In this document: piece after piece, positions 354 to 63,634 of the stretch
Numbering within the stretch: position 1 is the first letter of the stretch
How the letters are laid out: each line of letters starts with the position of its first letter
DNA from: Octopus vulgaris
Lineage: Eukaryota
Assembly (NCBI GenBank): GCA_951406725.2
Contig: OX597839.1
Location: forward strand, 21,080,001 to 21,144,000
Direction of reading: 5' to 3'
Length of the DNA stretch: 64,000 nt
Translations under genes and position numbers: made by a program
The notes under the pieces: model-generated
Told to the model about the DNA's origin: nothing
The model's database searches: none
What the model saw: the letters and a program-made list of their open reading frames with translations, nothing else

Positions 354-405
354 CAGAAAACAACTGACATTCATTACTGAATGTATTTATATATTTTCCT
401 TCCAG

Positions 406-465
406 ATATATTTACAGTTACATTGGTCATAGTCCTTCTGTTACCCTTATCTATGATTTTTGTTG
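406..465 (+). CDS. TMEM272-like membrane protein, internal coding exon (xIFTVTLVIVLLLPLSMIFVG)
   Basis: ttccttccAG acceptor, G|GTGAGT donor, phase 1/1, hydrophobic TM segment; splices in frame to exon 7601-8052. Confidence 0.8.
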
Positions 466-599
466 GTGAGTACAAGATGCCTTTTACTATTCTACTTCTC
501 TTTTACTCTTTACTGGTCTCAGTTTGGGGATTGAACCGATTTCAGTCGATCGTATCAACCTCACCAGAATTTATTCTAGTCCAGCATTTATTTTGATAC

Positions 600-3500
600 G
601 CTACTGTGTTAGACTCGTGATCCTAAGTTTGCAGTTTCAATTCCTGGACTGGGTGATGTGTTGTGTTCTTGAGCAAAACCCTTCATTCCATGTTGCTCCA
701 GTCCATTCAGCTAATGGTTAGGATGTTGCACTCATGAGTTCTAGATTGTGGTTTCAATTCCTGGACTGGGCAGTGCATTGTGTTCTTGTACAAAACACTT
801 CATTTCATGTTGCTCCAGTCCACTCAGCTAATGGTTAGGATGTTGCACTCATGACTTCTAGATTGTGGTTTCAATTCCTGGACTGGACAGTGCATTGTGT
901 CCTTGAGCAAGACACTTCATTTCATGTTGCTCCAGTCCACTCAGCTAATGGTTAGGATGTTGCACTCATGACTTCTAGATTGTGGTTTCAATTCCTGGAC
1001 TGGGCAGTGCATTGTGTTCTTGTACAAAACACTTCATTTCATGTTGCTCCAGTCCACTCAGCTAATGGTTAGGATGTTGCACTCATGACTTCTAGATTGT
1101 GGTTTCAATTCCTGGACTGGGCAGTGCATTGTGTTCTTGAGCAAGACATTTCATTTCATGTTGCTCCAGTCCACTCAGCTAATGGTTAGGATGTTGCACT
1201 CATGACTTCTAGATTGTGGTTTCAATTCCTGGACTGGACAGTGCATTGTGTTCTTGAGCAAGACACTTCATTTCATGTTGCTCCAGTCCACTCAGCTAAT
1301 GGTTAGGATGTTGCACTCATGACTTCTAGATTGTGGTTTCAATTCCTGGACTGGACAGTGCATTGTGTTCTTGAGCAAGACACTTCATTTCATGTTGCTC
1401 CAGTCCACTCAGCTAATGGTTAGGATGTTGCACTCATGACTTCTAGATTGTGGTTTCAATTCCTGGACTGGACAGTGCATTGTGTTCTTGAGCAAGACAC
1501 TTCATTTCATGTTGCTCCAGTCCACTCAGCTAATGGTTAGGATGTTGCACTCGTGACTTCTAGATTGTGGTTTCAACTCCTGGACTGGACAGTGCATTGT
1601 GTTCTTGAGCAAGACACTTCATTTCATGTTGCTCCAGTCCACTCAGCTAATGGTTAGGATGTTGCACTCGTGACTTCTAGATTGTGGTTTCAAATCCTGG
1701 ACTGGACAGTGCATTGTGTTCTTGAGCAAGACACTTCATTCCATGTTGCTCCAGTCCACTTAGCTAATGGTTAGGATGTTGCACTCGTGACTTCTAGATT
1801 GTGGTTTCAATTCCTGGACTGGACAGTGCATTGTGTTCTTGAGCAAGACACTTCATTTCATGTTGCTCCAGTCCACTCAGCTAATGGTTAGGATGTTGCA
1901 CTCATGACTTCTAGATTGTGGTTTCAATTCCTGGACTGGACAGTGCATTGTGTTCTTGTACAAAACACTTCATTTCATGTTGCTCCAGTCCACTCAGCTA
2001 ATGGTTAGGATGTTGCACTCATGACTTCTAGATTGTGGTTTCAATTCCTGGACTGGGCAGTGCATTGTGTTCTTGAGCAAGACACTTCATTTCATGTTGC
2101 TCCAGTCCACTCAGCTAATGGTTAGGATGTTGCACTCATGACTTCTAGATTGTGGTTTCAATTCCTGGACTGGGCAGTGCATTGTGTTCTTGTACAAAAC
2201 ACTTCATTTCATGTTGCTCCAGTCCATTCAGCTAATGGTTAGGATGTTGCACTCATGACTTCTAGATTGTGGTTTCAATTCCTGGACTGGACAGTGCATT
2301 GTGTTCTTGTAGCAAAACACTTCATTTCATGTTGCTCCAGTCCATTCAGCTAATGGTTAGGATGTTGCACTCATGACTTCTAGATTGTGGTTTCAATTCC
2401 TGGACTGGACAGTGCATTGTGTTCTTTTGTAAACCACTTCATTTCATGTTGCTCCAGTCCATTCAGCTAATGGTTAGGATGTTGCACTCATGACTTCTAG
2501 ATTGTGGTTTCAATTCCTGGACTGGACAGTGCATTGTGTTCTTGTACAAAACACTTCATTTCATGTTGCTCCAGTCCATTCAGCTAATGGTTAGGATGTT
2601 GCACTCATGACTTCTAGATTGTGGTTTCAATTCCTGGACTGGACAGTGCATTGTGTTCTTGTACAAAACACTTCATTTCATGTTGCTCCAGTCCATTCAG
2701 CTAATGGTTAGGATGTTGCACTCATGACTTCTAGATTGTGGTTTCAATTCCTGGACTGGACAGTGCATTGTGTTCTTGTACAAAACACTTCATTTCATGT
2801 TGCTCCAGTCCACTCAGCTAATGGTTAGGATGTTGCACTCATGACTTCTAGATTGTGGTTTCAATTCCTGGACTGGGCAGTGCATTGTGTTCTTGAGCAA
2901 GACACTTCATTTCATGTTGCTCCAGTCCACTCAGCTAATGGTTAGGATGTTGCACTCATGACTTCTAGATTGTGGTTTCAATTCCTGGACTGGGCAGTGC
3001 ATTGTGTTCTTTTGTAAACCACTTCATTTCATGTTGCTCCAGTCCACTCAGCTAATGGTTAGGATGTTGCACTCATGACTTCTAGATTGTGGTTTCAATT
3101 CCTGGACTGGGCAGTGCATTGTGTTCTTGAGCAAGACACTTCATTTCATGTTGCTCAAGTCCACTCAGCTAATGGTTAGGATGTTGCACTCATGACTTCT
3201 AGATTGTGGTTTCAATTCCTGGACTGGGCAGTGCATTGTGTTCTTGAGCAAGACACTTCATTTCATGTTGCTCCAGTCCACTCAGCTAATGGTTAGGATG
3301 TTGCACTCATGACTTCTAGATTGTGGTTTCGAATTCCTGGACTGGGCAGTGCATTGTGTTCTTGAGCAAAACACTTCATTCCATGTTGCTCCAGTCCACT
3401 CAGCTAATGGTTATGATGTTGCACTCATGACTTCTAGATTGTGGTTTCGATTCCTGGACTGGGCAGTGCATTGTGTTCTTGAGCAAGACACTTCATTTCA

Positions 3501-6213
3501 TGTTGCTCCAGTCCACTCAGCTAATGGTTAGGATGTTGCACTCATGACTTCTAGATTGTGGTTTCGATTCCTGGACTGGGCAGTGCATTGTGTTCTTGAG
3601 CAAGACACTTCATTTCATGTTGCTCCAGTCCACTCAGCTAATGGTTAGGATGTTGCACTCATGACTTCTAGATTGTGGTTTCGATTCCTGGACTGGGCAG
3701 TGCATTGTGTTCTTGAGCAAGACACTTCATTTCATGTTGCTCCAGTCCACTCAGCTAATGGTTAGGATGTTGCACTCATGACTTCTAGATTGTGGTTTCA
3801 ATTCCTGGACTGGGCAGTGCATTGTGTTCTTGAGCAAGACACTTCATTTCATGTTGCTCCAGTCCACTCAGCTAATGGTTAGGATGTTGCACTCATGACT
3901 TCTAGATTGTGGTTTCGATTCCTGGACTGGGCAGTGCATTGTGTTCTTGAGCAAAACACTTCATTCCATGTTGCTCCAGTCCACTCAGCTAATGGTTATG
4001 ATGTTGCACTCATGACTTCTAGATTGTGGTTTCGATTCCTGGACTGGGCAGTGCATTGTGTTCTTGAGCAAGACACTTCATTTCATGTTGCTCCAGTCCA
4101 CTCAGCTAATGGTTAGGATGTTGCACTCATGACTTCTAGATTGTGGTTTCGATTCCTGGACTGGGCAGTGCATTGTGTTCTTGAGCAAGACACTTCATTT
4201 CATGTTGCTCCAGTCCACTCAGCTAATAGTTAGGATGTTGCACTCATGACTTCTAGATTGTGGTTTCGATTCCTGGACTGGGCAGTGCATTGTGTTCTTG
4301 AGCAAGACACTTCATTTCATGTTGCTCCAGTCCACTCAGCTAATGGTTAGGATGTTGCACTCATGACTTCTAGATTGTGGTTTCGATTCCTGGACTGGGC
4401 AGTGCATTGTGTTCTTGAGCAAGACACTTCATTTCACGTTGCTCCAGTCCACTCAGCTAATGGTTAGGATGTTGCACTCATGACATCTAGATTGTTGGTT
4501 TCAATTCCTGGACTGGGCAGTGCATTGTGTTCTTGAGCAAGACACTTCATTTCATGTTGCTCCAGTCCACTCAGCTAATGGTTAGGATGTTGCACTCATG
4601 ACTTCTAGATTGTGGTTTCGATTCCTGGACTGGGCAGTGCATTGTGTTCTTGAGCAAGACACTTCATTTCATGTTGCTCCAGTCCACTCAGCTAATGGTT
4701 AGGATGTTGCACTCATGACTTCTAGATTGTGGTTTCGATTCCTGAACTGGGCAGTGCATTGTGTTCTTGAGCAAGACACTTCATTTCATGTTGCTCCAGT
4801 CCACTCAGCTAATGATTAGGATGTTGCACTCATGACTTCTAGATTGTGGTTTCGATTCCTGGACTGGGCAGTGCATTGTGTTCTTGAGCAAGACACTTCA
4901 TTTCATGTTGCTCCAGTCCACTCAGCTAATGGTTAGGATGTTGCACTCATGACTTCTAGATTGTGGTTTCGATTCCTGGACTGGGCAGTGCATTGTGTTC
5001 TTGAGCAAGACACTTCATTTCACGTTGCTCCAGTCCACTCAGCTAATGGTTAGGATGTTGCACTCATGACATCTAGATTGTTGTTTCAATTCCTGGACTG
5101 GGCAGTGCATTGTGTTCTTGAGCAAGACACTTCATTTCATGTTGCTCCAGTCCACTCAGCTAATGGTTAGGATGTTGCACTCATGACTTCTAGATTGTGG
5201 TTTTGATTCCTGGACTGGGCAGTGCATTGTGTTCTTGAGCAAGACACTTCATTTCATGTTGCTCCAGTCCACTCAGCTAATGGTTAGGATGTTGCACTCA
5301 TGACTTCTAGATTGTGGTTTCGATTCCTGGACTGGGCAGTGCATTGTGTTCTTGAGCAAGACACTTCATTTCATGTTGCTCCAGTCCACTCAGCTAATGA
5401 TTAGGATGTTGCACTCATGACTTCTAGATTGTGGTTTCGATTCCTGGACTGGGCAGTGCATTGTGTTCTTGTACAAAACACTTCATTTCATGTTGCTCCA
5501 GTCCACTCAGCTAATGGTTAGGATGTTGCACTCATGACTTCTAGATTGTGGTTTCAATTCCTGGACTGGGCAGTGCATTGTGTTCTTGAGCAAGACACTT
5601 CATTTCATGTTGCTCCAGTCCACTCAGCTAATGATTAGGATGTTGCACTCATGACTTCTAGATTGTGGTTTCAATTCCTGGACTGGGCAGTGAATTGTGT
5701 TCTTGAGCAAGACACTTCATTTCATGTTGCTCCAGTCCACTCAGCTAATGGTTAGGATGTTGCACTCATGACTTCTAGATTGTGGTTTCAATTCCTGGAC
5801 TGGGCAGTGCATTGTGTTCTTGAGCAAGACACTTCATTTCAAGTTGCTCCAGTCCACTCAGCTAATGGTTAGGATGTTGCACTCATGACTTCTAGATTGT
5901 GGTTTCAATTCCTGGACTGGGCAGTGCATTGTGTTCTTGAGCAAGACACTTCATTTCATGTTGCTCCAGTCCACTCAGCTAATGGTTATGATGTTGCACT
6001 CATGACTTCCAGATTGTGGTTTCAATTCCTGGACTGGGCAGTGCATTGTGTTCTTGAGCAAGACACTTCATTTCAAGTTGCTCCAGTCCACTCAGCTAAT
6101 GGTTAGGATGTTGCACTCATGACTTCTAGATTGTGGTTTCAATTCCTGGACTGGGCAGTGCATTGTGTTCTTTTGTAAACCACTTCATTTCATGTTGCGC
6201 CAGTCCACTCAGC
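600..6213 (+). repeat. 117-bp tandem satellite (~47 full units plus a degenerate first unit) derived from a tRNA-like SINE head
   Basis: Unit GGTTAGGATGTTGCACTCATGACTTCTAGATTGTGGTTTCAATTCCTGGACTGGGCAGTGCATTGTGTTCTTGAGCAAGACACTTCATTTCATGTTGCTCCAGTCCACTCAGCTAAT repeats from 716; last unit runs on into SINE body (GGCAAAAATGAG...). Confidence 0.97.
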
Positions 6214-7563: not shown

Positions 7564-7600
7564 TCGTAAAATAATAAATCATATTTCCTTCTCACCACAG

Positions 7601-8052
7601 GTTCCAGTTTCCAAGAGGAATGTCCCAAAGAACCCCGCATTCTTGTCTACCTGTTAGTGACAGGGAGTACAGGGACCCTGAAGATGATCCTGTCCCTCTG
7701 GCGCCAAGTCTCGTTCCGACGTAGCCAGAAGTACGAAAGCTACAACACCCACCACAATGACTACGACGACGACGATGATGACGAATCCCTTGTGGTGACC
7801 AAAATGCTGAAGTTCACCAGCAACTTCCTCACTTTATTCCTAATTGTCTGGTTTGTGCTCGGCAACGTATGGGTATTTGGAATCTGGTGGCCTAACCCCT
7901 TCGGAAGCCTCCACAAACCAATAGACTGGTGCAACCGATCCGTCTTTATCTACTGCATAGTTCATATTATGATTGTGTATGTCTTGCTGGCAGTGGCTGT
8001 ACTAACAGTCATTATTTTGATTATCTGTTACATGTGTCAAAGAACGGATTAA
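7601..8052 (+). CDS. TMEM272-like membrane protein, terminal coding exon
   Basis: ctcaccacAG acceptor; encodes [22 protein letters not shown]...[14 protein letters not shown]...CNRSVF...CQRTD*; the CPxEPxIxxYLLVxG and WFxxGNxWVF motifs are typical of TMEM272-like proteins. Confidence 0.85.
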
Positions 8053-22303: not shown

Positions 22304-22666
22304 TGTATAGACAGATATAGACCAACGGATTCAGAGACAAATGCATCGACCCCCAAAGGGATACACCATAACATAATGAAGACCAACACACACACACACA
22401 CACACAGAATGACAAACACATACAGATTCAGACAAATACACTGCCCCGTGGGTACACACACAGACCCATGCACAGACACACACACACACACACATACAAA
22501 TATACATACACACGCACATGTGTATGGCCATGTGGTAAGAAGTTTGCAGAAGACCTCCATGTGTCAGAAGGAACAGACAGAAATATTATCCACAAAGACA
22601 TCAGATATAAGTCTTATATGAAGAGAAAAAGGTTAATTTGTCACAAAAAGCAAAAGAAAATCATGA

Positions 22667-23377
22667 GGCGCAGGAGTGGCTGTGTGGTAAGTAGCTTGCT
22701 AACCAACCACATGGTTCCAGGTTCAGTCCCACTGCGTGACACCTTGGGCAAGTGTCTTCTGCTATAGCCCCGGGCCGACCAAAGCCTTGTGAGTGGATTT
22801 GGTAGACGGAAACTGAAAGAAGCCTGTCGTGTGTATATATATATATATAGGCGCAGGAGTGGCTGTGTGGTAAGTAGCTTGCTAACCAACCACATGGTTC
22901 CGGGTTCAGTCCCACTGCGTGACACCTTGGGCAAGTGTCTTCTGCTATAGCCCCGGGCCGACCAAAGCCTTGTGAGTGGATTTGGTAGACGGAAACTGAA
23001 AGAAGCCTGTCGTGTGTATATATATATATATAGGCGCAGGAGTGGCTGTGTGGTAAGTAGCTTGCTAACCAACCACATGGTTCCGGGTTCAGTCCCACTG
23101 CGTGACACCTTGGGCAAGTGTCTTCTGCTATAGCCCCGGGCCGACCAAAGCCTTGTGAGTGGATTTGGTAGACGGAAACTGAAAGAAGCCTGTCGTGTGT
23201 ATATATATATATATAGGCGCAGGAGTGGCTGTGTGGTAAGTAGCTTGCTAACCAACCACATGGTTCCGGGTTCAGTCCCACTGCGTGACACCTTGGGCAA
23301 GTGTCTTCTGCTATAGCCCCGGGCCGACCAAAGCCTTGTGAGTGGATTTGGTAGACAGAAACTGAAAGAAGCCTGTC

Positions 23378-23443
<66 letters not shown>

Positions 23444-23648
23444 TTGTGTGTCTGTGTTTGTCCCCCTAGCATTGCTTGACAACCGATGCTGGTGTGTTTA
23501 CGTCCCCATCACTTAGCGGTTCGGCAAAAGAGACCGATAGAATAAGTACTGGGCTTACAAAGAATAAGTCCCGGGGTCGATTTGCCCGACTAAAGGCGGT
23601 GCTCCAGCATGGCCGCAGTCAAATGACTGAAACAAGTAAGAGTAAGAG
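22667..23648 (+). mobile_element. SINE family A with four tandem 183-bp 5' halves followed by one 3' half
   Basis: GGCGCAGGAGTGG starts at 22667, 22850, 23033 and 23216; units near-identical. Confidence 0.9.
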
Positions 23649-46251: not shown

Positions 46252-46548
46252 ATTGTGTACAGTGCTCAGGTGCACTACAACTCATCTAAAGTGTATGTAT
46301 AATCAGGTGTAGCTTCGGCGGATTTCGGAAAGCATGAGGGCCTTAAAGGATGCAGTGTCATGGCAGTCAACAACTGACGCAGGCAGTTTATTCCATGCTT
46401 CAGCAACTCTGAGCGTGAAAAAATGTTTCCGAAAGTCATGGGAGCTGTGTTGTTTTCTGACTTTGTAGGCATGTCCACGTGTGTTAGACACATGGAGATT
46501 AAAAAGGTGTTCAGTGTTGTTGTTGGTGAGGTTATTAATATCATCACC
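46252..46548 (-). mobile_element. CR1-group LINE 3' fragment
   Basis: TRGHAYKVRKQHSSHDFRKHFFTLRVAEAWNKLPASVV. Confidence 0.8.
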
Positions 46549-48391
46549 ATAGCAGGAAAAAAAAAACTATATTATTTCTTCAGAAAATGGTATTTTATTA
46601 TATCATAATACAAAAATTGAAAAAAAAATTGTATTTTATAAAAATGCAGTTTAAGAGAAAAATGTGACTTTATTATATTAGAAATATACATATTAAAGAA
46701 TATCTTATTAGGAATATACACATTAAAGAATATTATATTAGGAATATACATATTAAAGAATATTATATTAGGAATATACATATTAAAGAAAATAAATTAT
46801 TTTTGTTCTGTTTAAAAGCATTAAGTTAATATTTGAAAATTTTAGAACTTTTTAGAAGTTTTTAGAAACATTCTGTTGTGTCTGGGGAGAGTCATTCTCT
46901 TTTAGTGCCTTATTATTTAACACACTCACCGGTAAAAGTTCCACTTATTTCTTATTTCTATTTTCCTAAAATTTTCGTTGCATCTTGCAAACCTTTTCAA
47001 TGGTCTTGACTCTGTCCGTTATTTACACTGCATTCCTTTTGTTTGTTTGTGCGCATGTGTGTGGGTCAGTGTGTGTGTGCCTATACATGCATACACGTAT
47101 GTATGTATGTGTGTGTGAACATGTGTTTGTATATGTATGCACCTCTGTCTCCTTGTGTGTGCATGTGTGTGTGTGTGTATGAATTTGGTTAAACTGCACC
47201 GCAAAATGTGGGAGGAGTTAGGAATCTAAATCGTAGGAGACAGACACTCACACAACTACAGTTTTATATATATATATATGTGTGTGGATCCATACGTGTC
47301 TGTTCATATAGTCTATAGACCTATCCGTCTGTATAAAAGAATTAAAGAATCATGAAAACCAAATCCAAAAACGAAATTTAGAAACATTATTTACGTGAAA
47401 ATTCTTTAACTCTTTTAATATCAGCGCACACATGACCATCCTCTGGATATATGATGCAAACATCTTATTTCAAAGTTATCTATATTAAAACCCTAAAAAA
47501 AAAATTCCATGTTAATTTATGTTCAAAACACCAACTAAAATTTATTTTATTGAAATCTTCATTATTTTTTTAATTAATAGAATTGATGTGTAATTCAACA
47601 AAAATTTACTAACAAATGGTTTAATACCTGTCTGTCTGAGACCACCCTGATTCTATGATATAAAATATCTTTAACCCTTTTATTACCATCTGGGACTCCC
47701 TTCGATCACGACATTGACCATGGGATTGTACCTCGAAAATTACCCTCCGAGGTACAAGTCCTGGTAAGGTTGTTTATGGAAGACCAGCAGTTGCCCATGC
47801 ATACTGGCCTCCATTCTCAACGCCACTGATGTTATCCAAGGGAAAGGCAAAGGGGCCGATACAGCTTGGCACCTGTGACGTCACAACTCATTTCTACAGC
47901 TGAGTGAACTGGAGCAACGTGAAATAAGGTGTCTTGCTCAAGAACACAACATGCAGCCCGGTCCGGGATTCGAGCTCACAACCTCACGATACTCTAACCA
48001 CTGAGCCATGCGCCTTCATTTTTATCATCATATTTCTGTTGAAAAAAAAGAAGGCATCGGTGGGACAATGCATATAGTGTGCACATACAAGGATCATATA
48101 AAATTTAATTTAATAAATATATTCTCAGACGAATTAATATTTCAACAAAATGACATCAAGAGTTATTCCCCCTGCTTATAGTTTATGGAAATGTAATAAA
48201 GGGGTAAAAAAAAAAGAGATTTTGATTCACCCGTCCACCAGTTTTGAAAATAATCAAACCAAAATAATAAGTTCGAGCTACTTGCCTACTGAGTATTCCT
48301 GCCAAATTTGGTGAAAATCCGTTTCGCCGTTTTCCAGTAATTTTGCAGACAAACAAAGACAATCGACTACGATTCCCTTCTAGCATAAGTG

Positions 48392-51987: not shown

Positions 51988-52150
51988 TTCAGTTTTCTCC
52001 GTTGTGACCAGTCGGTATTTCCTCATCATTTGAACCACAGCCACTTTGAACTGCAGCTTGGCCAGTCTCATACCAATGCATATCCTGGGTCCACCTCCAA
52101 AAGGGGTATAAGTAAACGGGGTCTGCCGTGCTTTGCCTTCTTCACTGAAT
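51988..52150 (-). CDS. Cytochrome P450 heme-binding exon (RFSEEGKARQTPFTYTPFGGGPRICIGMRLAKLQFK...TEKTE)
   Basis: AG/GT boundaries, 163 nt, FxxGxRxCxG motif. Confidence 0.95.
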
Positions 52151-52579
52151 CTAAAATTTAAAACAATCCGAAAACACAGTATAGGACAATGTTAGTAAGA
52201 AATATGCTGTTAGCAATGTAGGAGTTTAAATGCTTTTAAATGCAACGAGTTTGTTTGAATTAATTAAGATATTTAATTAATTGCTGCTTCTTTACTGCTT
52301 CTTTAACATGCAGCAGGTGACCCTGGGTATTCATTTATTTATTTTTTTTTTTTCCTTTTACTCTTTTCTTTTACTCTCTTTTACTTGTTTCAGTCATTTG
52401 ACTGCGGTCATGCTGGAGCACCGCCTTTAGTCGAGCAACTCGACCCCGGGACTTGTTCTTTTTGTAAGCCCAGTACTTATTCTATCGGTCTCTTTTTGCC
52501 AAACCGCTAAGTAACAGGGACGTAAACACACCAGCATCGGTTGTCAAGCAATGCTAGGGGAACAAACACAGACACACAA

Positions 52580-53564: not shown

Positions 53565-53702
53565 CTTTCGGGATCAAACTTGGTAGGATCGGTCCAGTAT
53601 CTTTCGTCGTAATGTAAGCTACGGATCGGCATGATGACAGTCATTTTTGCGGGAATTTTCACACCTTTGATGACGCAGTCCTTCTTGCATTCTCGCTGAA
53701 GA
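53565..53702 (-). CDS. Cytochrome P450 exon (LQRECKKDCVIKGVKIPAKMTVIMPIRSLHYDERYWTDPTKFDPER)
   Basis: AG/GT boundaries, 138 nt, phase 2/2, PERF motif. Confidence 0.95.
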
Positions 53703-57416: not shown

Positions 57417-57574
57417 ATCTCCGACCACTTCCATGATTTCTTTGTAGACTTTTTCTTGGATGTCTGGGTTAAAAGCCATGCAACGTGCGAAGAATGTCAA
57501 TGTGGAAGCCGTAGTTTCGTAACCAGCCAGGAAAAAGATTATGCATTGTGCAATTATTTCTGTATCAGTGATAC
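57417..57574 (-). CDS. Cytochrome P450 I-helix exon (GITDTEIIAQCIIFFLAGYETTASTLTFFARCMAFNPDIQEKVYKEIMEVVGD)
   Basis: ttccAG / GTAAGT, 158 nt, AGYETT motif typical of clan 3. Confidence 0.95.
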
Positions 57575-58089: not shown

Positions 58090-58433
58090 ATTGTGTACAG
58101 TGCTCAGGTGCACTACAACTCATCTAAAGTGTATATATAATCAGGTGTAGTTTCGGCGGATTTCGGAAAGCATGAGGGCCTTAAAGGATGCAGTGTCATG
58201 GCAGTCAACAACTGACGCAGGCAGTTTATTCCATGCTTCAGCAACTCTGAGCGTGAAAAAATGTTTCCGAAAGTCATGGGAGCTGTGTTGTTTTCTGACT
58301 TTGTAGGCATGTCCACGTGTGTTAGACACATGGAGATCAAAAGGGTGTTCAGTGTTGTTGTTGGTGAGGTGGTTGACAAACTTGTGGGTGTTTACCAAGT
58401 CCGTCGCCAGACGCCGGAGCTTCAGTGAATCCA
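58090..58433 (-). mobile_element. CR1-group LINE 3' fragment
   Basis: MDSLKLRRLATDLVNTHK...TRGHAYKV...HFFTLRVAEAWNKLP; near-identical to the 46252 copy. Confidence 0.8.
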
Positions 58434-58673
58434 TTAGACAAATCCTATAATGATTGAAAGAGTGAAAGGATGGATTTAGGAACCTTTTCTACACTAAGCA
58501 CAAGGCGTGAAGTTTTTGGGGAGGGTGGCCAGTTGATTAGATCGCCCCCAGTATGCAACTGGTACTTAATTTATCGACTCTGAAAGGATGAAAGGCAAAG
58601 TCAACCTCGGCGGAATTTGAACCCCAGAACGTAATACTGCTAAGTAATTCGCCCAGCGTGCTAACGTTTCTGC

Positions 58674-58745
58674 AAGCTCATTTGGGAATTGAACCTGTGA
58701 CCTCTGGCACCTAAAATGAGGATCATACCCCTAGACCAATGAGCC
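58674..58745 (-). pseudogene. tRNA-Pro pseudogene (72 nt)
   Basis: GGCTCATTGGTCTAGGGGTATGATCCTCATTTTAGGTGCCAGAGGTCACAGGTTCAATTCCCAAATGAGCTT aligns end to end with eukaryotic tRNA-Pro (GGCTCGTTGGTCTAGGGGTATGATTCTCGC...) but has stem mismatches. Confidence 0.75.
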
Positions 58746-60861: not shown

Positions 60862-60985
60862 CTCTTTTGTGTTTCCAATCACTTATGTTTTCCAGTGGGA
60901 TATCCTTTGCTCCGTTTCCTGTCAGGTTTTCATTTCCAGCCACTTGAGCTTCGAGCATGATTTCCAGGAAATCTTTACATGCTCC
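60862..60985 (-). CDS. Cytochrome P450 exon (GACKDFLEIMLEAQVAGNENLTGNGAKDIPLENISDWKHKR)
   Basis: AAG acceptor, G|GTTAGC donor, 124 nt, DFLxxML motif; an upstream GTGATT donor in the same phase is possible. Confidence 0.8.
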
Positions 60986-61747
60986 CTTTACCGAAAAACA
61001 CAAGAAAGAAAGAATTTAAAAATCACAAAACGAAGTTCAGAAATATTAAAATAAGACACCAACAGTGATCAACTGGTATTTATTTTATTGACCCCTCATC
61101 CCCCAAAGGTTCAAAAGCAAAGTTTACCGCAGCAGGATTTGAACTCAGAATGTAAAGGTGGACAAAATGCTGCTACATGTTTTAACTGACATAGGTTTCT
61201 TATTTCTTTACTGCCCACATGGGGCTAAACATAGAGGGGGACAAACAAGGGCAGACAAAGGGATTAAGTCGATTACATCAACCCCAGTGCATAATTGGTA
61301 CTTAATTTATCGACCCCCGAAAGGATGAAAGGCAAAGTCGACCTCGGAGGAATTTGAACTCAGAACGTAACGGCAGACAAAATACTGCTACACATTTCGC
61401 CCAGCGTGCTAACGTTTCTGCCAACATGCCACCTTTAATAACAACAATAACAATAATAATAATAATAATAATAATTCTTTGTACTATGTGTACAAGGATG
61501 AAATTTCTTGGGCCATTCAATTACATTGATCCCGGGGCTCAAATAGAACTTATTTTATCAATGCCAAAATGACGAAAGGCAAAGTCGACCTTGGTGTAAT
61601 TTGAACTCAGGACCTAATGAATTGGAAGAAATGCTGCTAAGTATTTTTGTCCAACATGCTAATGATTCTGCCAACTTGCCTCTTTAAATGTTAAAATTCC
61701 AACAACAGCAAAAAAGGGAAGCGAAAGAGATAAAAAAAGGAACGTAC

Positions 61748-61878
61748 ATTAGGGTTGAGATTTTGTCTTCGAGTCTTCAGAAGCTGTTTAGAAAATTCTG
61801 CAAGAAGATTTGTCCTTTTATTAAAGTAATCTAAAACTTTCAGTTTGCTGAGGAAGTTTACCAAGCCAGGAGCTACAG
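61748..61878 (-). CDS. Cytochrome P450 exon (TVAPGLVNFLSKLKVLDYFNKRTNLLAEFSKQLLKTRRQNLNPN)
   Basis: ctttttAG / GTACGT, 131 nt, phases compatible with both neighbours. Confidence 0.85.
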
Positions 61879-62036
61879 CTAAAAAGAAAAGAAGAAAATA
61901 AAAAGCATAAACAAATTGAATATTTGCTTTGACTTTCTTTTTAAATTTTTTTTTTTACACTTTTATTTGTTTCAGTCATTTAACAAATCATACCTAATGC
62001 AGCTCCCGAAGCAAGACATTTAAAAAACTGAATTTA

Positions 62037-62100
62037 GTTCTATATCACCTGTGATTTCGCAATTAACATATTAAATACATCTTTTGTTCATCAGTAGAAC
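62037..62100 (-). ncRNA. Type-I hammerhead ribozyme motif (sense in P450 pre-mRNA)
   Basis: GTTCTA-CTGATGA-acaa...ttgc-GAAA-TCAC-AG-GTGA-TA-TAGAAC on the minus strand. Confidence 0.75.
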
Positions 62101-62612
62101 AGATTCTGAACACATCATAAATAAACAACCAACATACCTAGCGAAGCCCAACAGACATCTGCTCCCCTCGGCGAAGCACATGGAAATGTTTATTGATCAT
62201 ATATTCGGTAAATGTCTTGCTTCGGGAGCTGCATTAGGTATGATTAGTTAAATTTTGGTAGTAATGACTTATGTCCCTCTTAGCGTGTGGCATTTATGTG
62301 TAATAATGCCCTCTATACAATATAAATAAATATTTTCAAGTGAAAAAATTATTTTCGAATTTTTTCTCTTATGAGGTTTTTCACGCTAACTACCTGATAA
62401 TTTCTTGTTAAGATTCCTTATTAAGATTTTATCCTTAATTGTTAAATTTATTCCGAAGAAAAACTTTTCCTACCGACGTGCAGTTCGAAAAAGCCCGCCA
62501 TTTACCGAATATATGATCAATAAACATTTCCATGTGCTTCGCCGAGGGGAGCAGATGTCTGTTTGGCTTCGCTAGGTATGTAGGTTGTTTATTTATGATG
62601 TGTTCAGAATCT

Positions 62613-62676
62613 GTTCTACTGATGAACAAAAGATGTATTTAATACGTTAATTGCGAAATCACAGGTGATATAGAAC
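62613..62676 (+). ncRNA. Type-I hammerhead ribozyme motif
   Basis: Stem I GTTCTA/TAGAAC, CTGATGA 62619-62625, GAAA 62655-62658, stem III ATCAC/GTGAT, AUA cleavage triplet 62668-62670. Confidence 0.75.
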
Positions 62677-62952
62677 TAAATTCAGTTTTTTAAATGTCTT
62701 GCTTCGGGAGCTGCATTAGGTATGATTAGTTAAATTTTGGTAGTAATGACTTATGTCCCTCTTAGCATGTGGCATTTATGTGTAATAATGCCCTCTATAC
62801 AATATAAATAAATATTTTCAAATGAAAAAATTATTTTCGAATTTTTTCTCTTATGAGGTTTTTCACGCTAACTACCTGATAATTTCTTGTTAAGATTACT
62901 TATTAAGATTTTATCCTTAATTGTTAAATATATATATACATATATATATATA

Positions 62953-63350
62953 CTAGCAGTATTGCCCGGCGTTGCTTGGGTTTGTAAGGGAAATAACTAT
63001 ATAAGCATTTTTAGAGATGTAAAGTATAATAGCCATCTCAATATGGTTAACCACAAAGGGGGGGGGTGTTACTGTAGCTTTTTACGTTCTGAGATTTAAT
63101 AATACATTTTTAGAGAGTTACTTCCCTTATATAAACCGACCGAAAATGCATTAGAAATGTGAAAAATTGATGGTAAATTTTTTTTTAAATCGTAGACTCA
63201 TCGTAGACACGCGCTAATACCCAGAAGGGCTCGATATGAATCACGACTATAAGATTCCCGGTTTTGGTTAAACTGCACCGCAAAATGTGGGAGTAGTTAG
63301 GAATCTAAATCGTAGGAGACAGACACACAACTTGACTTTTATATATAAAG

Positions 63351-63351
<1 letters not shown>
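62953..63351 (-). mobile_element. Non-autonomous Helitron-like element
   Basis: A|TC start at 63351; CAAGCAACGCCGGGCAATACTGCTAG|T end. Confidence 0.75.
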
Positions 63352-63387
<36 letters not shown>

Positions 63388-63485
63388 TGCCTTCTATGCT
63401 AGAATGGGTTGGACAATTTGACTGAGGGCTGTAAACCAGATGGCTGCACCAAAATAATAATAAAAATTAAAGGAAACTGACTTAC

Positions 63486-63634
63486 TGGAAAGTAGTCCTA
63501 TCAACAGTTCATTCTGTTTATTCAAAATACTCAAAGCATTTTTCACTAGTGGATGATCACCCTGTTCTGAAGAATTTAGTTCAACACCAAACCCCACGGC
63601 AGCGATGTTGTCCAACGTGTATTTACTAAATGCA
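63486..63634 (-). CDS. Cytochrome P450 clan 3 exon (AFSKYTLDNIAAVGFGVELNSSEQGDHPLVKNALSILNKQNELLIGLLS); upstream exons lie beyond the window
   Basis: ttttAG / GTAAG, 149 nt; resembles CYP3A YSMDVITSTSFGVNIDS. Confidence 0.9.

Follow-up and report, generated by a model that had tools for sequence, protein, structure and literature searches.

The DNA at 61978-62933 of the window (the whole 64,000-nucleotide stretch of octopus DNA analysed here) is a copy of a dispersed, non-coding hammerhead retroelement, i.e. a non-LTR retrozyme, which bears a Penelope-type insertion footprint and lies within an intron of an expressed P450 gene. Most likely this is an ordinary retrozyme insertion, pasted head-to-head into the intron by Penelope-like machinery, in which the sense hammerhead would be constitutively paired and the intron is spliced normally; the parts of this explanation observed directly are the family structure, the fixed 3' ends, the TA targets, the covarying fold, and the splice junction. 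The insertion is probably fairly young and silent in its host intron. Its forward arm (62209-62933, plus strand) comprises 1.5 head-to-tail units of a 482-nt non-coding monomer (62209-62690, then 62691-62933), the 3' end of which enters a (TA)n tract, and meets the inverted arm (61978-62214, minus strand, unit positions ~291 to 45), which is the sense strand in the P450 pre-mRNA, in a 6-nt overlap (62209-62214) representing microhomology at the head-to-head junction. The near-perfect inverted arms and the direct repeat of ~238 bp reported in the preliminary description both hold, with 62499-62735 and 61978-62214 differing at 4 of 237 positions and 62209-62449 and 62691-62931 at 4 of 241, one of the latter differences being at the edge. 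The four arm differences are uncompensated, one of them weakening stem II of the sense copy, and are in line with the 3.1% mean divergence among the family copies that share its A.C mismatch. Two fixed 3' ends of the family can be recognized in the forward arm, an AT-rich one near unit position 125 (62803-62815, plus strand) and a second near unit position 243 (62921-62933, plus strand), which is the one used by the window copy, the forward arm having a 118-nt tail past the first. The inverted arm stops short of both normal 3' ends, at unit position 45 instead of 125, where it abuts a short repeat that is broken, and a later deletion would account for this shortening. To the right of the retrozyme, a very high-copy repeat with what we take to be Helitron-like ends is inserted in the TA tract (62956-63350).

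A search of the genome (2.8 Gb, 227 contigs) with the arm gave 44 matches from the best 40 scored of 1404 candidates, and the 3' piece of the unit gave 3180 candidates. We mapped 67 non-duplicate loci, a non-random sample found by similarity to the window, on the 482-nt unit as defined by 62209-62690. Head-to-head arms are present in 42 of the 67 loci, 4 of which hold a whole hammerhead in both arms, and (TA)n stands at the end of 97 of the 113 mapped segments. As many as 102 segments stop at either of two points, 51 near unit position 125 and 51 near 243, and 32 of the 42 head-to-head pairs have one arm of each end type. The arms mostly span 0.2-1.7 units; the main arm exceeds 500 nt in 13 of the 67 loci, two loci carry two tandem hammerheads, and the longest copies (801 nt) run unit into unit without a coding body. 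The unit itself has a GC content of 0.33 and a longest ATG frame of 36 aa, and no ORF crosses the unit-to-unit junctions. The family combines the hallmarks of non-LTR retrozymes, namely dispersed copies and head-to-tail repetition of a non-coding low-GC unit that contains one type I hammerhead, with those of a Penelope-type footprint, namely 5' truncation, an inverted companion, a one-sided tail, and a microsatellite target. An older sister family (L110-L129, e.g. G000:C6:91271072-91274299), with a unit of ~497 nt that is ~63-83% identical in the mapped pieces, has similar two 3' ends, inverted arms, and mostly an AUC site.

Both hammerhead layouts of the preliminary description were recovered at 62613-62676 (plus strand) and 62037-62100 (minus strand); these are the only two matches to a type I hammerhead descriptor in the whole 64 kb, and a stricter descriptor also gave 2 matches in the real window as against 0 in 40 block-wise dinucleotide shuffles. 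Each motif carries CUGAUGA, GAAA, and AUA, in agreement with the type I core (CUGANGA, GAAA, UH). The plus-strand motif, antisense in the pre-mRNA, has A10.1 at 62626, C11.1 at 62654, and A17 at 62670, with a predicted cut at 62670/62671, and the minus-strand motif, sense in the pre-mRNA, has A10.1 at 62087, C11.1 at 62059, a predicted cut at 62043/62042, and one private C>T in stem II at 62068. The layout is complete as had been claimed, but its 5-bp stem III would close a 2-nt loop, and a 4-bp stem with a CAGG loop, or a dimeric stem III, appears more realistic. The Infernal-type check that had been proposed did not recover a hammerhead: Rfam scans (E<=5 over 56-64 kb; E<=10 over 61950-62950) returned only low-score snoRNA and microsatellite-driven miRNA matches. 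Because Rfam gave no hammerhead match, the ribozyme call is based on the descriptor and on covariation. Across 28 aligned motifs, 93% of the cells of the three helices are paired and 8 of 20 pairs show two-sided change, whereas slid-structure controls reach 22-46% paired; two of four shuffle measures were not exceeded, and most of the covariation reflects a single split, the one separating the two families, so that it amounts to few independent events. At the family level, the hammerhead motif is real, judging from a fold that covaries with the sister family. Taken in isolation, the hammerhead fold of the motif lies 2.6-2.7 kcal/mol above the best fold in an energy model without tertiary contacts.

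The A.C mismatch noted at the first stem II pair (10.1/11.1) is real in both motifs, which therefore lack the usual pairing at this position. G10.1-C11.1 has been termed highly conserved (PMC4209133), and Perreault et al. (2011) discarded matches mispaired at 10.1-11.1 by default, yet list a natural U-U case among the tested variants (PMC3088659). Within the window family (35 motifs, one false match having been removed), position 10.1 is A in 33 (18 A-U and 15 A.C), T in 2, both from one locus, and G in none, and a search for the exact 21-mer around it gave 17 matches with A but none with G. The 10 scanned motifs of the sister family, the stems of which are different but paired, comprise 4 G-C, 3 G-U, 2 A.C, and 1 U-U. 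Mean divergence is 3.1% for A.C copies, 5.4% for A-U copies, and 8.3% for the sister family, values that are biased by the use of the window copy as query. The A-U state is apparently older than A.C on this query-biased divergence (5.4% versus 3.1%), from which the order was taken because the tree root is unreliable owing to a long outgroup branch. A10.1 is family-wide rather than locus-specific, the mismatch being inherited from source elements still being copied, and any templates edited at 10.1 seem to have left no trace among the family copies. An origin of A.C by editing was considered and rejected, the other diagnostic subfamily changes not being A>G-like. It is likely that A.C lowers activity, without proving the ribozyme dead. 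With respect to the use of the cut site, we counted the starts of 27 arms, leaving out a duplicate arm (L176) and the window's two arms: where 1.6 were expected, 5 of the 27 begin within unit 458-472 (P=0.02), none starts at 461-465, where the cut site lies, and 20 read across the predicted cut site. One cluster of starts, at 466-472, coincides with a near-palindrome that favours fold-back, and another falls in stem II; overall, the starts do not clearly point to cleavage.

The location inside a P450 intron and the splice site at 61878 were borne out, all 4 probable RNA runs analysed having contigs with the joint 61878^63486; these contigs, ~2 kb long, come from 4 runs (four studies) out of the 11 that we guessed to be RNA. 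The host intron (61879-63485, minus strand) is 1607 nt long, GT-AG, and of phase 1, and is cleanly removed in all 4 runs, in animals that may or may not carry the insertion. Among these contigs, which drop rare variants, none retains the intron, and in none do the two flanking exons differ by T>C at the level of the contig, where low-level editing does not appear. Differences from the arms in the RNA contigs stem from other family copies, and low-depth family contigs, also from other copies, span the cut site. In contigs of 4 DNA or unlabelled runs, neither insertion junction is bridged, the contigs breaking at the repeat-rich left flank. The RNA contigs define the upstream exon (63486-63634, minus strand), which by motif we take to be the E-helix region, and the downstream exon (61747-61878, minus strand), which would correspond to the F/G-helix region. 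The next P450 exon (~60890-60985, minus strand) is shown by the loose end of the RNA contigs beyond 61747, with its far end placed from sequence alone. Farther along the minus strand follow the I-helix exon (AGYETT) at 57417-57574 (PF00067, E=2.5e-14), the exon after the K helix at 53565-53702 (PF00067, E=8.1e-13), and a stretch of approximate ends at 52000-52191 that holds the heme-binding exon (FGGGPRICIG; PF00067, E=1.5e-13), and two candidate upstream exons of the same gene lie beyond the window on the minus strand (L031:4354-4474 and L032:3429-3528). Taken singly, 4 of 7 gene pieces, namely the two exons flanking the insertion and the two upstream candidates, give no P450 Pfam match; order, strand, and motifs suggest that the flanking exons belong with the Pfam-positive ones. 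The host P450 presumably resembles the CYP3 clan.

Several other features of the window were recorded. Two near-identical copies of a LINE 3' fragment (46278-46605 and 58116-58488) lie inside the P450 region, and a weak tRNA match (58674-58745, minus strand; 24.6 bits, cut-off 29) heads a short repeat that recurs, the arrangement expected of a tRNA-derived SINE. A long tandem array of a satellite-like repeat occupies the window start (~400-6100), a 160-aa open stretch with hydrophobic, membrane-protein-like segments is found at 7570-8049 (plus strand), and a short interspersed repeat forms a long 183-bp tandem array at 22400-23500.

The order of synthesis that had been proposed, with the antisense arm made before the sense ribozyme in the minus-strand P450 pre-mRNA, is correct, as is the position of the sense motif ~160 nt before the 3' splice site, the predicted cut falling 164 nt upstream of the acceptor. 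Masking by a long dsRNA hairpin is supported as a prediction: in the predicted pre-mRNA fold, the upstream arm takes up all 64 hammerhead nt and pairing extends to 234 of 237 arm nt, and forcing the hammerhead costs 99.8 kcal/mol in a calculation that ignores tertiary contacts and kinetics. Some 112 bp of the hairpin could form before the first hammerhead base is made. The hairpin lies 99 nt from the acceptor, and both the acceptor and the polypyrimidine tract are outside it. Since in a head-to-head pair the antisense copy precedes the sense copy whichever strand is transcribed, this order needs no adaptation to the P450 gene; the predicted masking of the sense hammerhead would be constitutive. 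As to how such a copy may have arisen, a Penelope-like reverse transcriptase/GIY-YIG endonuclease likely pastes the unit RNA as two head-to-head arms: the enzyme would cut a (TA)n tract, each DNA end would prime cDNA synthesis on a tandem or circular RNA template, beginning at either of two AT-rich points, and this two-point priming would leave only one of the two arms with the 118-nt tail, the window's inverted arm having later lost, or never completed, its last ~80 nt. Once transcribed, the earlier antisense arm would pair off the sense hammerhead, and for ADAR the hairpin is probably a substrate as ordinary as any other inverted repeat, in which promiscuous editing would damage the A-rich hammerhead core and not activate the ribozyme.

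The same geometry had been read in the preliminary description as a possible ribozyme/anti-ribozyme switch modulated by ADAR editing. In a switch of this kind, ADAR would loosen the hairpin and convert A10.1 to inosine, the restored I-C pair would let the intron cleave itself 164 nt before the acceptor, and P450 output would be tuned. An A.C mismatch is an attractive editing target, and the arrangement of arms and motifs fits such a device; moreover, coleoids edit intronic repeats widely (PMC9068888), and the CPEB3 ribozyme provides a precedent for intronic control. The details nevertheless argue against a switch, which we regard as extremely improbable. The antisense-first order comes automatically with head-to-head arms (42 of 67 loci), A10.1 is a family-wide feature with no G10.1 copy (0 versus 17 exact 21-mers; 0 of 35 family motifs), and the arms decay uncompensated, the window copy in this one genome showing neither locus-specific conservation nor compensation. 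In the duplex, A10.1 would face U and not C, and because it is only 1 of the 25 adenosines in the 64-nt motif, broad editing would also strike the core. The model places ~100 kcal/mol between the masked and hammerhead states, and the transcript contains a single sense copy, which precludes an intramolecular dimer. Literature searched by titles and beginnings of abstracts, with few subscription papers, contained no switch combining ribozyme, ADAR, intron, and inverted repeat. A combined version, in which head-to-head insertion would be a built-in silencer allowing retrozyme copies to survive in introns, and ADAR would lift this gag and repair the A.C pair to I-C, giving an editing-gated, self-cleaving intron that tunes the P450, is highly unlikely. 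If a host intron did hold a ribozyme under editing control, this would be new; the support for it here is geometric. We also consider it unlikely that the insertion exerts a mild, unselected effect on its host without any role of the ribozyme, the 237-bp hairpin recruiting ADAR or feeding small-RNA pathways and slightly altering neighbouring splicing or editing. The predicted pairing of 234 of 237 arm nt would favour such an effect, as would the widespread repeat-directed editing in squid introns (PMC9068888), but the polypyrimidine tract is outside the hairpin, and the contigs of the 4 runs, which drop rare variants, show neither T>C in the flanking exons nor a retained intron.

Another question is whether the unit is the pLTR of a coding Penelope-like element, all the copies seen being 5'-truncated ends. 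What stood of the earlier pLTR assignment is the Penelope-type origin, through the TA targets, the inverted arm, and the one-end tail; its attribution to a coding element did not, the 482-nt unit being non-coding and joined to itself head-to-tail. The footprint does match that of coding Penelope-like elements (PMC8557442), and Xenopus retrozymes have been related to pLTRs (Li et al., bioRxiv 10.64898/2026.07.22.740005), but unit follows directly on unit in copies of up to 801 nt, without a coding body, no RT + GIY-YIG frame occurs within or beside the unit at the mapped loci, and no coding copy adjoins the unit at any of them. A GIY-YIG search of the genome gave 148 matches, of which 42 loci, the best-scoring candidates, were compared with the unit; apart from a match of 16 nt, the comparison yielded just one insertion of the sister family, lying nearby. 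This insertion, an 80% match at L044, was rejected as a coding partner, being located in a TA tract and not the end of that element. Intact elements encoding a 781-aa RT + GIY-YIG protein are present in the genome; on their 3' side they pass into (TA)n, in some cases through a 33-nt tail, but the 3' end of this family is no closer to the 482-nt unit than shuffles are (227 and 175 of 500). We therefore give very little credence to a pLTR of a coding element and favour an ordinary retrozyme insertion. The 781-aa family (L067-L073 and L078, e.g. G000:C16:20835000-20841500) is of interest in its own right as a young coding Penelope-like family with many intact frames, in which GIY-YIG is C-terminal, an overlapping upstream frame of <=479 aa without a convincing Pfam match, and a CxxxxCxxC-type linker, seen in L044 (Neptune-like by PMC8557442); its 3' UTR holds a degenerate hammerhead-like motif with UUGAUAA replacing CUGANGA, and the 33-nt tail before (TA)n is optional. 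Type I hammerhead candidates of unrelated sequence also lie near Penelope-like copies at L068:5230 (minus strand), L044:45 (plus strand), and L040:690 (minus strand).

Read as an ordinary insertion, the window copy adds one retrozyme family, in which G-C (sister family), A-U (older), and A.C (apparently youngest) form a natural series that bears on the cleavage needed for retrozyme spread, and head-to-head insertion predicts automatic silencing of intronic ribozymes. Alu-type inverted repeats in introns are ADAR substrates. In squid tissues other than the nervous system, it is repeats of introns and 3' UTRs that are edited (PMC9068888); editing of the octopus hairpin is plausible but would be ordinary. 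Like these substrates (Alu-type; squid, PMC9068888), the octopus insertion would form a long near-perfect intramolecular duplex in pre-mRNA, but both of its arms come from one insertion event and carry a ribozyme motif, and its editing is a prediction. Like the CPEB3 HDV-like ribozyme and the ultraconserved amniote hammerheads, its motif lies in an intron of a pre-mRNA, close to an exon; whereas these are single-copy and conserved, the octopus motif belongs to a young mobile copy that decays without compensation, is mispaired next to the core, and is accompanied by an antisense partner of full length.

Among retroelements, Penelope-like elements are described as showing 5' truncation, partial tandems, an adjacent inverted copy, a one-end tail, and a microsatellite bias (Craig et al. 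2021, PMC8557442). The octopus unit has the same footprint as EN+ clades such as Neptune, with a hammerhead in the repeat and a short near-palindromic helix III (PMC8557442; Cervera & de la Pena 2014, PMC4209133), but it lacks an RT or GIY-YIG frame, its tail is 118 nt as against their 30-40 bp, and no sequence link was found to the coding Penelope-like family in the same genome. Non-coding tandem units with a type I hammerhead are classed as non-LTR retrozymes (Cervera & de la Pena 2020, PMC7229834), and Li, Clavereau & Pollet (2026, bioRxiv 10.64898/2026.07.22.740005) tied retrozymes to Penelope-like elements, with 43.9% of X. tropicalis copies being intronic and cleavage in only 1 of 9 dimers tested. 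The octopus family agrees with the metazoan members in its non-coding, low-GC (33%) unit with one type I hammerhead, its head-to-tail arrangement, its dispersed and intronic copies, and its co-occurrence with Penelope-like elements. Its 482-nt unit is longer than the mussel units (350-390) and the 170-400 nt of Cervera & de la Pena, and falls within the 51-972 bp of Li et al. It differs from them in that most arms hold 0.2-1.7 units, with no long arrays, and in that A10.1 replaces the conserved G; whereas retrozymes as a class occur in cells as linear and circular monomer RNA, the octopus unit is known here from DNA and assembled contigs. Nor do the passages compared from the published retrozyme descriptions (PMC7229834; bioRxiv 10.64898/2026.07.22.740005) mention head-to-head inverted arms or two fixed 3' ends.
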